A DNA stretch of 64,000 bases, from the NCBI GenBank assembly GCA_041750655.1, contig JBGSYZ010000013.1, forward strand, positions 4,769 to 68,768, read 5' to 3'. The notes under the pieces were generated by a model. It searched no databases. It worked only from the letters and a program-made list of their open reading frames with translations, and was not told where the DNA came from. Below, in pieces: positions 3,098 through 51,710 of the stretch; position 1 is the stretch's first letter, and each line of letters starts with the position of its first letter. The stretch comes from Minisyncoccia bacterium. GTDB taxonomy: Bacteria; Patescibacteriota; Minisyncoccia; Phycocordibacterales; UBA918. Position numbers and translations under genes: made by a program.

Positions 3098-3694
3098 ATG
3101 TTAATTCTTGATGTAGAAGCTTCAGGGACTGAATACCATAAACACTCAATAGTCTCGATTGGGGCGGTGGATTTTGAAAATCCAGAGCGACAGTTTTATG
3201 GTGAATGCAAAATTTGGGAAGGGGCCCATATTAATCCCGAAGCGTTACAAGTTTGTGGATTTAGTGAAGCTGAAGTAACCGATACAAACAAAAAATCAGA
3301 AGCCGAACTGATAACGGAATTCTTGGAATGGACTCAGGAGATGGGTGATAGAACGATTGTTGGTCAAAATCCATCCTTTGATAGAGACTTTACCAAAGCG
3401 GCCGCTGAAAGAGCGGGTATTGCTTGGGATTTAGCCTATCGCACACTTGATACTCACACGATGTGCTGGATGCATATTATCAACAAGGGAGAGCAGCCGC
3501 CGATTGATGAACAACACCGACGTAGTGCCCTTAATCTTGATGCGGTTCTCAATTACTGTGGTATCCCCGAAGAACCACAGCCACACAATGCTCTAACTGG
3601 AGCCCTTTCTCATGCCGAAGTAGCCGCTCGTTTACTGTACGGTAAACAATTACTCCCAGAGTTTAAACACTACGCTATTCCGTGGTGTGTCTAA
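3098..3694 (+). CDS. DEDDh-family 3'-5' exonuclease (DnaQ/RNase T-like)
   Basis: Exo I motif LILDVEASG; C-terminal H-x-A-L motif region HNALTGALSHAEV. Confidence 0.7.
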   Translation: MLILDVEASGTEYHKHSIVSIGAVDFENPERQFYGECKIWEGAHINPEALQVCGFSEAEVTDTNKKSEAELITEFLEWTQEMGDRTIVGQNPSFDRDFTKAAAERAGIAWDLAYRTLDTHTMCWMHIINKGEQPPIDEQHRRSALNLDAVLNYCGIPEEPQPHNALTGALSHAEVAARLLYGKQLLPEFKHYAIPWCV

Positions 3695-16979: not shown

Positions 16980-17531
16980 TTAAGTCGCCGCATCCTCAGC
17001 TTCAGGCTGAGTAGCTGCAAAGTTATCCAAAGCCGTCGCTACTGTAGCATAATCTGGCAAACCTTCCTTTTGTTCTATTCCGAGGTGTGCTAAGAGTGCT
17101 GGTGTAGCCTGGTAACTATACCCTCGGGCACTTTCACTTCCTACTCGTTCTACCAAGCCACGTATCTGTAGGTTGCGAAGAATAAACGAAGAATTTACTC
17201 CGCGGATCCGATCTATCTCAATTCGACTTATTGGGCCGCGGTATAAAATCACCGCCAATGTTTCGGCTCCAGCGCTGCCGATATCACGCTTTAAATCGTC
17301 ACGTCTGATTCGTTCAATTACTTCTGCGTGCTCGGGGGCAGTCATAATTTGTACTTCTTTGGTATCTGACACAATCAGACGAAGGCCTCTGGTAGACAGA
17401 TTTTGTTGTAAAGACACTAAAGCGTTACCTAAGTTTTCAGCGTCAGTGGCAAAAAACTTCAGCAACCACGAAATAGCCACCGGTTTGGCTTTGTAAAATA
17501 AGACTGCCTCGATGTGTTGTTCGAGCTCCAC
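16980..17531 (-). CDS. scpB: segregation and condensation protein B
   Basis: IEAVLFYKAKPVAISWL… winged-helix ScpB pattern; 183 aa. Confidence 0.85.
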   Translation of the reverse strand: MELEQHIEAVLFYKAKPVAISWLLKFFATDAENLGNALVSLQQNLSTRGLRLIVSDTKEVQIMTAPEHAEVIERIRRDDLKRDIGSAGAETLAVILYRGPISRIEIDRIRGVNSSFILRNLQIRGLVERVGSESARGYSYQATPALLAHLGIEQKEGLPDYATVATALDNFAATQPEAEDAAT

Positions 17532-17602
17532 ACCTCTATTTTACCAGAAAAACCCCTGTTTTACTTGAGATATTGACAGTTTAAAAAAGGTGTTGATAAG
17601 TG

Positions 17603-17630
17603 TTGACAAATATTTATATTGTGCTAGTAT
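17603..17630 (+). promoter_or_regulatory. sigma70-type promoter TTGACA-N16-TAGTAT
   Basis: TTGACA 17603-17608; TAGTAT 17625-17630; also GTGTTGATAAGTGTTGACA upstream. Confidence 0.55.
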
Positions 17631-17636
17631 ATTGGC

Positions 17637-18027
17637 ATTCGGGAGGAACGTGGCGACCCGGATCGGGTGCTTTGCACCGAAGTCGGCCACAACCACCAAC
17701 GCCGGCATGACCGGCAAGGAGGAAACGATGAAGATGCTGACCGCGACCGCTCGAGGCTCGCCGTGCGCGTAGCGCACAATAACAAAAATCAAATCGTCGA
17801 TCTTTTGACCGACATCGCCGGCGCCGACCTGGGCGACTGACCGATCCCGGCCGACGCGGGCCGCGAAGGCAGGTGAATCCTGGCCTTGGTCCGCACAACG
17901 ACAACCTTTCTGTTCCGGGAATGCCCGGCGAAAAAAGATTGGTGGTCGCGATTCTTCCGCCCAAGCAGCGCATGGCTGACTTGTGTGAATCACAAATGCT
18001 TAACGGTGGGATAAGCTCCACCACAAA
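17637..18027 (+). ncRNA. candidate structured ncRNA of unknown class (GC-rich, ~60% GC) between scpB and scpA
   Basis: Bounded by the promoter above and an intrinsic terminator; no plausible ORF on either strand (Arg-rich translations); 3' motif GCUCCACCA at 18015-18023. Confidence 0.4.
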
Positions 18028-18030
18028 CGG

Positions 18031-18070
18031 CCTCTAACTTGTGCGGACAAGTTAGGGGTTTTTCTTTTTT
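18031..18070 (+). terminator. intrinsic terminator
   Basis: CCTCTAACTTGT-GCGG-ACAAGTTAGGGG hairpin followed by TTTTTCTTTTTT. Confidence 0.8.
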
Positions 18071-18116
18071 ATATTGTAGCTAGGTCTTTCCTAGCTTAAG
18101 TTAAACAATCAAAAAA

Positions 18117-18860
18117 TTAAAAATACCCTGGAGCTCCCTTGCCTTCCCTTTCAATATGGATATCATCAAAGCGACGGGCTTGAGCTACTAAGATGGAGCC
18201 TTGTTTGACTGACTCAAGCACGGCGAGAAATCCAACAATCACCGAACCTCTTTCTTTCTCATCTTTGATTAAGTCACTAAATCGTAGCTTCAGTTGCCTT
18301 TGTATACGCTCATGTAGACGATCAATCATTTCTTCCAGCGAAACAACTTTCTTTACTTGTACTTTTGGTTTTATTTCGGTTTTGGGGAGATTGGTTACAA
18401 CATTTCGGGCCGCTTCACTAAGAGCACTTAGATTTGTGAATTTATCCTCTACAAAAATTGGCTCGTCTGGGAGTACAAACGCACTCTCGTACATCATGTG
18501 TTGGCCAAAGATGTTTTGGATGGTTCTGCCAGCTTCACGGTAGATTTGGTACAGCTTAAGTCGGTGCTCAAGATCTTCGATTTTTTCTTCTTCCTCGTCG
18601 GTGAGTTCTAGAACCGGTAGTAAGGATTTGGATTTTATTAAAAGTAAGGTGGCGGCCAGGGTAATGAACTGGGCGGTATTAGGGAGTGAAAGTTGTTGCA
18701 TGTGTGAGACACGCGCCATGTATTCGTTGGTTACTTCGGCCAGGGATATGTCATTAATCAAAAGCTTTCGTTTCTCAACGAGTTCGATAAGGAGTTCTAA
18801 CGGTCCTTCAAACACTGGGGTTTTAACCGCGAACGTAGGCTCGTGCGTTGTACTAGGCAC
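18117..18860 (-). CDS. scpA: segregation and condensation protein A
   Basis: FEGPLELLIELVEKRKLLINDISLAEVTNEYM N-terminal kleisin motif; 247 aa. Confidence 0.85.
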   Translation of the reverse strand: MPSTTHEPTFAVKTPVFEGPLELLIELVEKRKLLINDISLAEVTNEYMARVSHMQQLSLPNTAQFITLAATLLLIKSKSLLPVLELTDEEEEKIEDLEHRLKLYQIYREAGRTIQNIFGQHMMYESAFVLPDEPIFVEDKFTNLSALSEAARNVVTNLPKTEIKPKVQVKKVVSLEEMIDRLHERIQRQLKLRFSDLIKDEKERGSVIVGFLAVLESVKQGSILVAQARRFDDIHIEREGKGAPGYF

Positions 18861-20914: not shown

Positions 20915-21041
20915 GCAGGAATTTTACCATAAGTTGACATATTAATAATATCATGTATAATATAAAAACTGTCGCCCGCTTGGGTATAACAGTTCTTTCT
21001 TGGGCGGGCTGCAGCAATGCAACTCAACCAAGGAGGCCGAC

Positions 21042-21317
21042 ATGGCTCTTTCACCTGAAGACATTACCCCAACTTATGGAGAGCTACAAGTTGTTGACTG
21101 GGTTGAAAAACACCCTATTGATGGCGAGTTAGCGAATCATTCGGGGTTCGAGAAGTACATCAGAATTGAGGTGCCAATTGCTGAAAATACACCAGCTAGT
21201 CTGCGTCGTATTAAAGCCGAACTAACACGTCGCTACAAGGCGGCCGGTTGGTGGAAAGTCCGGTGGATTGCTGGGCAGGGACCGCGTTCGGTTGGTTTCA
21301 TTCTCGAACAGGAATAG
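21042..21317 (+). CDS. small hypothetical protein (91 aa) with strong SD; GC-richer than its neighbours
   Basis: AAGGAGG 6 nt before ATG 21042 (the ORF track starts at 21000); no family recognised. Confidence 0.45.
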   Translation: MALSPEDITPTYGELQVVDWVEKHPIDGELANHSGFEKYIRIEVPIAENTPASLRRIKAELTRRYKAAGWWKVRWIAGQGPRSVGFILEQE

Positions 21318-21379
21318 CGGCGCAACGCGCCGAACGCCACGACGGTCTCCGTAGGAGGCGACATGAAACGACGATAAGC

Positions 21380-21410
21380 GAACCGGCCCCATGGGCCGGT
21401 TCTTTTTCTT
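21380..21410. terminator. bidirectional intrinsic terminator (serves aspS and the small + gene)
   Basis: CCGGCCC-ATG-GGCCGG hairpin followed by TTCTTTTTCTT. Confidence 0.75.
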
Positions 21411-50642: not shown

Positions 50643-51710
50643 TTATTGCACTATAATACCACCACCGAGACATATATCTCCCTGGTAGCACACACACGAC
50701 TGACCGACAGCGTAGGCCTCAATAGTATCTATAGCAACTAACGAGATGTTTGTTTCAGTTATTGAAGCTACTTCCATTGAAAACGGTTGCTGTCGATAGC
50801 GAGTTTGTATTTCGACTGTATCCCCCACTTTTGGTCGGTTGCGTATCCAGTTTGTGTAGTGCAGATTAATTGTGTTGTTGGCTGTCACCATTGGTTTGTG
50901 TACCGACACAGTTATGGTGTTTTCACTAATATTTTTATCAATTATATAGTGTGGGGTATTAGTGGGGTTGATAGTTTTGATAGTAAATCCATGTCTTTGG
51001 CCTACCGTATAAATAATACTACCTTCATGCGTACCAATAACATTACCTTTTTTATCTAATACATCGCCCGGAATTAAGTCTATATAATGACTAAGAAACT
51101 CTTTTATATCAATCTGCCCCAGGAAACATATTCCTTGACTGTCTTTCTTTTCGCTGGTCAGGAGGCCGGCTGCGCCGGCCTCCTTTCGAATCATCTCTTT
51201 AGTCGTATCTCCTACCGGCAACAAAACATGCTTAAGTTGCTCCTGAGTCAGAGTCCATAAGAAATAACTTTGGTCTTTGTTAATATCAATCCCTCTCGTA
51301 AGCTCAAAACCAGCGTCAGTTGCAATATTCTGCGCATAATGGCCGGTTGCTATGTAGTCGGCACCCTTTTCTAATGCAAACTTTAAAAAAGCGCCGAATT
51401 TTACTTCCTTGTTGCATAAGACGTCTGGGTTAGGTGTTCGTCCGGCTTTGTATTCTTCAATAAAATAGTTGGCTACTTCGTCACGATAAGCTGCTTCAGC
51501 GTCACAGGTGAGAAATGGAATATCAAGTTTGGCTGCCACTCGCATGGCATCGAGGCGTTCTTGCTCCCAGTTACACACCAACCACTCTGGATGCCAGACT
51601 TTGATGAATACCCCGACTACGTTGAAGCCGCGCGCCGTCAGGCGCGCGGCCGCCACTGAGGAATCCACTCCTCCAGATAGTCCAACAAATACTGTTTTTT
51701 TATCCTTCAC
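50643..51710 (-). CDS. mnmA: tRNA 2-thiouridylase MnmA
   Basis: PP-loop FVGLSGGVDSSVAA; 355 aa. Confidence 0.9.
   Translation of the reverse strand: MKDKKTVFVGLSGGVDSSVAAARLTARGFNVVGVFIKVWHPEWLVCNWEQERLDAMRVAAKLDIPFLTCDAEAAYRDEVANYFIEEYKAGRTPNPDVLCNKEVKFGAFLKFALEKGADYIATGHYAQNIATDAGFELTRGIDINKDQSYFLWTLTQEQLKHVLLPVGDTTKEMIRKEAGAAGLLTSEKKDSQGICFLGQIDIKEFLSHYIDLIPGDVLDKKGNVIGTHEGSIIYTVGQRHGFTIKTINPTNTPHYIIDKNISENTITVSVHKPMVTANNTINLHYTNWIRNRPKVGDTVEIQTRYRQQPFSMEVASITETNISLVAIDTIEAYAVGQSCVCYQGDICLGGGIIVQ

Follow-up and report, generated by a model that had tools for sequence, protein, structure and literature searches.

What is encoded between scpA and scpB in a Minisyncoccia bacterium, where a long spacer rich in guanine and cytosine (GC) holds the two genes apart? 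We addressed this question in a 64,000-nucleotide (nt) stretch of contig JBGSYZ010000013.1 (assembly GCA_041750655.1, positions 4,769–68,768 of the forward strand), hereafter the window, numbered from its first letter. A preliminary description of the window, made from its letters, had proposed that the spacer carries a promoter-to-terminator unit for a novel or foreign structured non-coding RNA (ncRNA). The host belongs to the candidate phyla radiation (CPR), whose members have tiny genomes and are not culturable alone; to our knowledge, almost nothing is known of regulatory RNAs and micropeptides in this radiation. Here we describe the unit as a cassette whose elements are conserved at the same site in related genomes, with covarying helices, preserved reading frames and no known match. 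In the reading we favour, to which we give about an even chance, it is a lineage-restricted, accessory 'coding small RNA' of dual function, in which one or two micropeptide open reading frames (ORFs) are joined to a structured RNA tail.

Results

A conserved antisense unit in the scpA–scpB spacer

Both genes (scpB, 16980–17531; scpA, 18117–18860) are encoded on the minus strand and belong to a string of housekeeping genes comprising ftsW, mraY, a D-Ala-D-Ala carboxypeptidase gene, scpB, scpA, grpB, pepA and aspS. Their homologs match the Pfam families SMC_ScpB and ScpA, and the nearest named ScpA relative carries the label Candidatus Pacebacteria. The spacer between them (17532–18116) measures 585 bp, as had been estimated, and the sequences CCCGGATCGGG and GCTCCACCA are found in it. 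Its GC content reached 0.545–0.635 over 17600–17999 in 200-nt windows, with a maximum of 0.64 in 150-nt windows and 0.71 in the core at 17829–17900, against a mean of 0.41 (standard deviation 0.055) for the whole window, confirming the reported contrast between the island and its flanks of about 40%. The remaining GC peaks (2051–2201 and 51501–51676) fall within long minus-strand ORFs (1834–2496 and 50643–51710) and are not analogues of the island.

The cassette extends from ~17598 to 18075 on the plus strand, antisense to scpAB, its left edge being placed near 17598 by alignment to an empty site (L023, see below). The promoter, terminator, ribosome-binding site and 14-codon ORF of the preliminary description were all recovered at their positions (Table 1). 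With a TG at 17622–23, the promoter is predicted to be of the near-consensus extended −10 type; it was kept in all seven homologs described below. The promoter scan returned five sites where 1.9 were expected, and none on the minus strand within the island. The terminator carries a GCGG loop (GCGGA, 18043–18047) that is conserved in homologs, and eight of its 14 stem pairs have changed on both sides across them (hand alignment, see below).

ScpA homologs of 53–94% identity were followed to their contigs, and the loci were labelled L001–L026. Comparison of scpA–scpB spacing in these relatives, a check that the preliminary description had proposed, revealed seven homologous cassettes in related CPR genomes (ScpA 74–94% identical), all of them sharing the site and the antisense orientation: L002/L003; L012/L013/L014 (the same as L018/L019/L021); L016; L017; L022; L011, which carries the 3′ part of the cassette only; and L025/L026. 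From the −10 box to the terminator end, five cassettes span 433–440 nt, and those of L017 and L025 span 334–344 nt. In L004–L007, L023 and L024 the scpA–scpB gap is just 46–130 nt and holds no cassette; L008–L010 have two unrelated small antisense ORFs there, and L001 has a 94-amino-acid (aa) single-helix membrane ORF. Relatives without the cassette include genomes with 76–90% ScpA identity. Because close relatives either lack it or carry unrelated small antisense genes in its place, the cassette is, judged from these comparisons, accessory. Neither BLAST nor a covariance model detected a second copy in the window and 13 loci, and a covariance model of the core matched the known copies only, in 124 kb. 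A metagenome scan with the small-ORF pattern returned only contigs of the L012 species and one chance match; the same pattern gave nothing in a viral collection.

Two overlapping micro-ORFs in the 5′ part

The Shine-Dalgarno (SD) sequence and the small ORF behind it (sORF1) are the most conserved part of the cassette and were found in every homolog, even where the 80-nt leader had been replaced. The window, L012, L022 and L017 have a common leader, in which a hairpin (17701–17715) ends 1 nt before the SD; L002, L016 and L025 have unrelated leaders of similar length. GGAGGAA was present in all seven homologs regardless of the leader. The sORF1 peptides follow the consensus MKxLFxxxRGSP(CA), with changes at wobble positions. 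Minimum changes at the first, second and third codon positions numbered 10, 6 and 15 overall, and 0, 1 and 4 in codons 9–12, the last four shared; synonymous variants occur at eight positions (K2, L4, F5, S6, P7, R9, G10 and S11). L025 retains R-G-P through a different codon register, and the stop codon is either UGA or UAG. From this pattern of change, sORF1 is conserved and probably translated.

A second frame, sORF2, overlaps the end of sORF1 and closes at the UGA of a conserved CUGACCG. It is open, in the same relative frame, in all five full-length cassettes (window, L012, L022, L002 and L016). Their ATG-to-UGA distances (110, 104, 107, 119 and 116 nt) are all 2 modulo 3, and therefore at least four independent insertions or deletions in an otherwise very variable linker were each a multiple of three. 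The sORF2 start lies at the sORF1 stop as UGAUG in L002 and L016 and as GUGA in L022, and is a GUG 7 nt upstream of that stop in the window and L012. In L025 both ORFs are fused into a single 34-codon ORF (MFVLTMRPPRGPTWSATDNKNTDDNFAGAGTHQG) running from the same SD to the UGA of CUGACCG. The ORFs measure 12–14 and 23–28 codons across homologs, and the predicted peptides, of 12–28 aa, are hydrophilic. We take the open frame as good, though not conclusive, evidence for sORF2.

The 5′ strand of a hairpin in the window begins with the GUG start (17763); the same hairpin also holds the sORF1 stop, and L016 conceals its sORF2 AUG in a hairpin likewise. Such a stop/start hairpin has the classic layout of translational coupling, which may operate here.

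A covarying hairpin series up to the terminator

The 230 nt past the sORF2 stop retain the same series of hairpins despite 20–30% divergence. M2 is found in all homologs, and its outer helix becomes GAGCUAG/CUAGCUU in L022 and GCGAAU/GUUCGC in L016, with five pairs changed on both sides. Similarly, M3 reads GACCAUU/GAUGGUC in L012 and CCACCAU/AUGGUGG in L002, and its inner helix reads UCAGG/CCUGG in L016. The UCCGC that follows M3 is always unpaired and is complementary to the conserved terminator loop GCGGA. The two read UCCGC/GCGGA in five sequences, UCCGU/GCGGA in L011, and UCCGU/ACGGA in L017 and L025; on this one compensatory change, the sequences suggest a loop pairing or pseudoknot. The last hairpins, termed type I, are common to the window, L016 and L011, with a G-C to A-U change, and L012, L022, L002, L017 and L025 have non-homologous hairpins at these positions. 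The GCUCCACCA motif near the 3′ end, which had been likened to a transfer RNA (tRNA) or transfer-messenger RNA (tmRNA) terminus, proved to be the 3′ side of a hairpin that reads GGUGGG/UCCACC in the window and GAUGGG/UCCAUC in L016 and L011.

RNAalifold on a plain MAFFT alignment gave 77 pairs, 24 of them with a compensatory change. In the core alignment built with a covariance model, 78% of cells were paired, versus 39–52% after sliding, and 1 of 500 shuffles reached the covariation score. Since that realignment left helix registers uncorrected, a hand alignment was then built and kept via N-padding; its ungapped rows match the real sequences, and it passed unchanged through MAFFT. It contains 62 pairs with 97.5% of cells paired (versus 37–48% slid), and 20 pairs changed on both sides, a number reached in none of 500 shuffles. 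An independent script that included L011 and the type-specific hairpins gave 26 of 80 columns. The analysis supports the originally proposed discrete promoter-to-terminator unit antisense to scpAB, which is conserved in relatives with compensatory base-pair changes.

Known RNA families, long ORFs and mobile elements

Searches of the whole window, and of L001 and six homolog loci, against Rfam 15 at gathering thresholds returned no match, and none of its riboswitch, T-box, ribozyme, intron or OLE, GOLLD, ROOL and HEARO families was found in the window or homolog loci. With the cutoff relaxed to E ≤ 10, positions 17400–18250 yielded only NsiR1 and a dianthovirus untranslated region, both on the terminator at chance-level E values of 0.2–0.3. 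ARAGORN detected no tRNA or tmRNA in the window or six homolog loci; the tmRNA model RF00023 gave no match even at E ≤ 10, and no tRNA-like domain was found. RNase P RNA, signal recognition particle (SRP) RNA and 6S RNA likewise had no Rfam match, and the cassette is absent from L004–L010, L023 and L024. The earlier impression, gained by eye, that the island fits none of these four architectures was borne out by Rfam and ARAGORN. One element, GAUUGGUGGUCGCG, looks T-box-like, yet it forms the 3′ side of helix M3 and drew no Rfam match.

Long ORFs were excluded as well. Six-frame Pfam searches of the island found nothing meaningful, and each reading frame, on both strands, is interrupted in at least one homolog. 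A 150-aa minus-strand ORF ending 10 nt before scpB had resembled an operon member and fitted the pattern of GC by codon phase. It was rejected, as it is interrupted by stops in L022, L012 and others, a word-indexed search was empty, and an exhaustive HMMER search of 1.84 billion representatives returned one spurious call on an L016-type island. A 54-aa plus-strand ORF (17873–18037) was also discarded, with an early stop in L011 and a peptide identity far below the DNA identity. Gene calls on the homologs by JGI and ENA differ in strand; the 136–172-aa 'proteins' called on either island strand arise artefactually because the GC-rich sequence has few stops, and P0121, one of them, is listed as an orphan in protein clusters. 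The preliminary verdict that the island holds no believable ORF therefore stands for long ORFs and probably fails for the conserved sORF1 and the overlapping sORF2.

A distant-mode BLASTN search against plasmids gave one 39-nt match of 90% identity to Streptantibioticus, which we judged to be chance for GC-rich DNA, and the phage collection gave none by BLASTN. A mobile element was considered and rejected: no second copy turned up in the window and 13 loci, and a 12-nt inverted repeat (17546/18054) lies partly in sequence that empty sites also have. We found no description of such a cassette in the literature.

Variable slots along the gene run

Judged from these comparisons, the spacer is a variable slot, bounded by the scpA terminator and the promoter region of scpB, that takes several alternative cargoes, the GC island among them. 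All relatives, with or without the cassette, keep the 65 nt just ahead of scpB (17532–17597). Their minus strand contains TGGTAAAAT, an extended −10-like box only ~10 nt ahead of the scpB GTG start; scpB may accordingly be transcribed from a promoter of its own, with a very short leader or none. The stretch from the −10 box to the terminator is flanked by an exact 10-nt direct repeat, TTTATATTGT, which matches at 15 of 16 nt on extension to ...GCTAG, and the empty site of L023 has a similar ATATTTATGTAG beside the scpA terminator. The repeat may be a footprint of cassette insertion or duplication. In L012 (~3290–3400) and L022 (~1850–1975), on the minus strand of the loci, an extra conserved hairpin (GGCCUCAAAACA...UGUUUUGAGAGCC, plus CUCCGUAAGUGGCUUUCCUAAU) lies 3′ of the cassette terminator; it is absent from the window.

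Neighbouring spacers are variable too. The aspS–pepA spacer of the window (20915–21409, plus strand) holds another antisense cassette of the same layout, with a leader hairpin behind its promoter and an orphan ORF of 91 aa; elsewhere, this spacer is only ~50 nt long in L002 and holds a different, 88-aa antisense gene in L008. The grpB–scpA spacer, just 67 nt in the window, is a second variable slot in relatives, occupied by unrelated antisense orphan ORFs of 69–152 aa, one of which has a weak double-zinc-ribbon match. Pfam found nothing on the cargo proteins of neighbouring slots.

Table 1. Features of the scpA–scpB cassette, its homologs and neighbouring slots (window coordinates unless a locus is named)
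Feature	Position	Strand	Details
Predicted sigma-70-type promoter	17603–17630	+	−35 TTGACA 17603–08, 16-nt spacer, −10 TAGTAT 17625–30; found by scan
Predicted transcription start	near A17637	+	
5′ leader, ~80 nt	17637–17715	+	helix GUGGC/GCCAC and hairpin GCCGG-CAUGA-CCGGC
Shine-Dalgarno sequence	17716–17722	+	AAGGAGG, 5 nt upstream of ATG
sORF1	ATG 17728 to TAG 17772	+	14 codons, MKMLTATARGSPCA, then stop
sORF1 peptide, L012			MKKLFSPARGSPCA
sORF1 peptide, L022			MKMLFSARRGSP
sORF1 peptide, L017			MTRLFPPTRDSP
sORF1 peptide, L002			MKIMFPPSRGSPCA
sORF1 peptide, L016			MKHMFSTARGSP
Stop/start hairpin	17763–17777	+	GUGCGC-GUA-GCGCAC; loop and 3′ strand hold the sORF1 stop
sORF2	17763–17840	+	25 codons, −1 frame, (GTG)MRVAHNNKNQIVDLLTDIAGADLGD, then stop
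Small hairpin	17841–17850	+	CCG-AUCC-CGG, right after the sORF2 stop; 14/15 cells paired (hand alignment)
M2 hairpin	17856–17894	+	outer GCGGGCC/GGUCCGC, inner AAGGCAGG/CCUGgCCUU, loop UGAAU
M3 long hairpin	17899–17948	+	outer CGACAACC/GGUGGUCG, inner CCGGG-AAUG-CCCGG
Single-stranded UCCGC	17956–17960	+	proposed partner of terminator loop
Type-I 3′ hairpins	17962–18022	+	CAAGCAGC/GCUGaCUUG 17962–17983; GGUGGG-AUAAGC-UCCACC 18005–18022
Intrinsic terminator	18029–18070	+	14-bp stem 18029–18060, U-tract 18061–18070; found by scan
TTTATATTGT repeat copy	18068–18077	+	repeats 17613–17622 (promoter spacer); family D7, 100% identity, spacing 455
Artefact ORF, window	17541–17993	−	
Artefact ORF, window	17614–18024	−	
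Artefact ORF, L012	3404–3922	−	
Artefact ORF, L016	2681–3154	+	
aspS–pepA cassette, promoter	~20934–20961	+	TTGACA-N17-(TG)TATAAT
aspS–pepA cassette, Shine-Dalgarno	21031–37	+	AAGGAGG
aspS–pepA cassette, ORF	ATG 21043 to 21317	+	91 aa, orphan, no Pfam match
aspS–pepA cassette, terminator	~21383–21405	+	
grpB–scpA slot ORF, L004	1802–2212	−	
grpB–scpA slot ORF, L011	343–753	−	
grpB–scpA slot ORF, L012	1864–2073	−	
grpB–scpA slot ORF, L025	2449–2907	−	
grpB–scpA slot ORF, L008	2452–2829	−	

Discussion

If the cassette is a coding small RNA, its strong promoter would give rise to a transcript of ~435 nt in two parts. The 5′ third would act as an mRNA in which the perfect SD drives sORF1, with its conserved C-terminal R-G-S-P. 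Ribosomes ending sORF1 would open the stop/start hairpin and re-initiate on sORF2 by termination–reinitiation coupling, stopping at the conserved UGA. The non-coding 3′ 230 nt would form the GC-rich, covarying hairpin series up to the intrinsic terminator, whose GCGGA loop would pair with the upstream UCCGC and compact the 3′ end; the structured tail may make the transcript more stable, serve as an RNA effector, or do both. We infer transcription, translation, coupling, loop pairing and any cellular function from the sequences. The functional output may be the peptide or peptides, the RNA, or a cis effect on termination and antisense scpA transcription.

Such an organization resembles that of dual-function small RNAs, examples of which are Staphylococcus RNAIII/hld, Escherichia coli SgrS/SgrT and Bacillus SR1/SR1P. 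Like them, the cassette would be a stand-alone transcript of a few hundred nt with an SD-led small ORF at its 5′ end and a multi-hairpin 3′ domain that ends in a terminator, whose hairpin loop is conserved. It differs from them in having no sequence or Rfam relationship to them, no identified base-pairing seed or target, and far shorter, overlapping ORFs in a coupled arrangement; it is also confined to a narrow CPR clade and dispensable between strains. Type I toxin mRNAs such as hok, tisB, ibs and fst are likewise small intergenic units with their own promoter and terminator, highly structured, and with a tiny ORF translated under the control of RNA structure or coupling (as in hok/mok). However, the cassette peptides are hydrophilic and not long enough to cross a membrane, and the scan found no antisense promoter. 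The cassette matches no described RNA or protein family, although its general kind, a small ORF in a structured, terminator-ended RNA, is already known; what sets it apart, judged from sequence, is a CPR host, micro-ORFs that overlap and would be coupled, and the proposed pairing of the terminator loop.

Several observations count against a coding small RNA. The case for transcription and translation is built from comparative sequence signals, and we can name no target, ligand or partner protein. With seven homologs from one narrow clade, the statistics derive from few independent events, and the hand alignment was fitted to the helices, so the best structural numbers lean towards structure. 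L017 and L025 lack M3, and two unrelated sets of last hairpins exist, a plasticity that would be odd for an RNA dependent on a precise fold. The loop pairing shows one compensatory change, maybe shared by descent in L017 and L025, and one wobble intermediate. On the coding side, the sORF2 peptide is poorly conserved, and the chance of its frame staying open is 0.39–0.59 per sequence. L017 retains the UGAUG overlap, but a deletion there shifts the frame and the conserved UGA no longer closes sORF2, which therefore may be dispensable.

The cassette could instead be a pure structured ncRNA, trans-acting or protein-binding, whose SD and mini-ORFs are incidental or do no more than load ribosomes, for example to shield the 5′ part from Rho or RNases. 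Strong covariation in the 3′ domain, the GC enrichment typical of stable RNAs and the sORF2 peptides, barely conserved and lost in L017, all argue for this, yet we think it unlikely: the SD, ATG and sORF1 are the most conserved elements even behind a swapped leader, and wobble-position variation, multiple-of-three indels, the stop/start overlap and the fused ORF of L025 also speak against it. The proposal of a novel structured ncRNA hence holds as to the conserved fold and the lack of an Rfam match, and not as to its being purely non-coding. The fused ORF of L025, which spans both parts in 34 codons, could also be the intact form of a plain small-protein gene that a frameshift has split elsewhere, leaving the GC-rich tail as a long 3′ untranslated region and terminator; or the cassette may be an orphan or foreign gene in decay. 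In line with such an origin, this slot and its neighbours hold further small orphan genes built on the same plan of promoter, SD and terminator, and the island has a codon-phase GC signal. We nevertheless regard it as quite improbable, given that six diverged genomes keep the split form with its coupling signals, that neutral decay would not be expected to leave 20 compensatory pairs, that every frame is interrupted within the 3′ 230 nt in at least one homolog, and that no donor sequence or protein relative was found. The suggestion of foreign origin in particular runs against the failure to find a plasmid or phage donor, the native-looking expression signals and the position common to seven related genomes; we regard both a foreign fragment and a gene in decay as unlikely. 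A housekeeping RNA is excluded. Its GC-rich, structured length of ~400 nt, its internal short ORF and, in the window copy, GCUCCACCA near the 3′ end do recall tmRNA, but the cassette has no tRNA-like domain and its ORF is of the form AAGGAGG-N5-ATG, whereas the tmRNA tag ORF has neither SD nor AUG. That a divergent tmRNA, RNase P RNA, SRP RNA or 6S RNA has escaped the models is barely conceivable: ARAGORN and Rfam were negative even at E ≤ 10, the CCACC is a strand of a covarying hairpin, and absence from close relatives is incompatible with an essential RNA.

It may also be asked whether the cassette acts in cis, as a leader or attenuator in which translation of a leader peptide with a possible stalling end (…RGSP-stop), together with UCCGC/GCGGA pairing, sets the efficiency of the terminator and hence read-through into what lies downstream: antisense scpA in the window and, in L002, the gene for a 171-aa membrane protein. 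Leader-peptide attenuators and stop-codon arrest peptides, such as TnaC, and the R-A-x-P motifs of the SecM/ApdP type provide precedents, with a very short ORF, a conserved C-terminal Arg...Pro by the stop, and then structured RNA and a terminator. In the cassette, a short ORF with a Pro-stop ending is followed by structure and by a terminator whose conserved loop has a complementary upstream partner; in the window this complementarity, read by eye, extends to UCCGCCCAAG/CUUGUGCGGA (9 of 10), and in L002 the extra gene is co-oriented and directly past the terminator. We know of no description of R-G-S-P as an arrest motif, however, and the stop is UGA or UAG. Six of the seven cassettes have no co-oriented downstream gene, convergent scpA lying there instead, and the L002 gene has a TTGACA promoter-like site of its own. 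The ORF lies ~270 nt from the terminator, the extended antiterminator complementarity exists in the window and L011 only, and no regulatory codon is enriched; attenuation is accordingly a doubtful explanation. More speculative still is a CPR-specific, translation-sensing RNA switch, for which we hold out little hope. Ribosomes at ...RGSP-stop would open the hairpin hiding the second micro-ORF start, ribosome traffic and the UCCGC/terminator-loop pseudoknot would set terminator efficiency, and read-through antisense transcription would tie translational status to the expression of scpA (chromosome condensation) or of downstream cargo. If true, the switch would represent a new riboregulator class, in organisms with almost no known regulatory RNAs.

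Returning to the coding small RNA that we favour, its distribution is narrow, but the cassette is a compact unit amenable to direct tests in E. coli or in vitro. It also bears on annotation, where spurious ORFs of 136–172 aa are called on the island and the real ORFs of 12–34 codons are missed. More broadly, strings of housekeeping genes in these genomes hold 'slots' between a terminator and the next promoter, in which strains swap small antisense cassettes, a route to gene novelty in reduced genomes.

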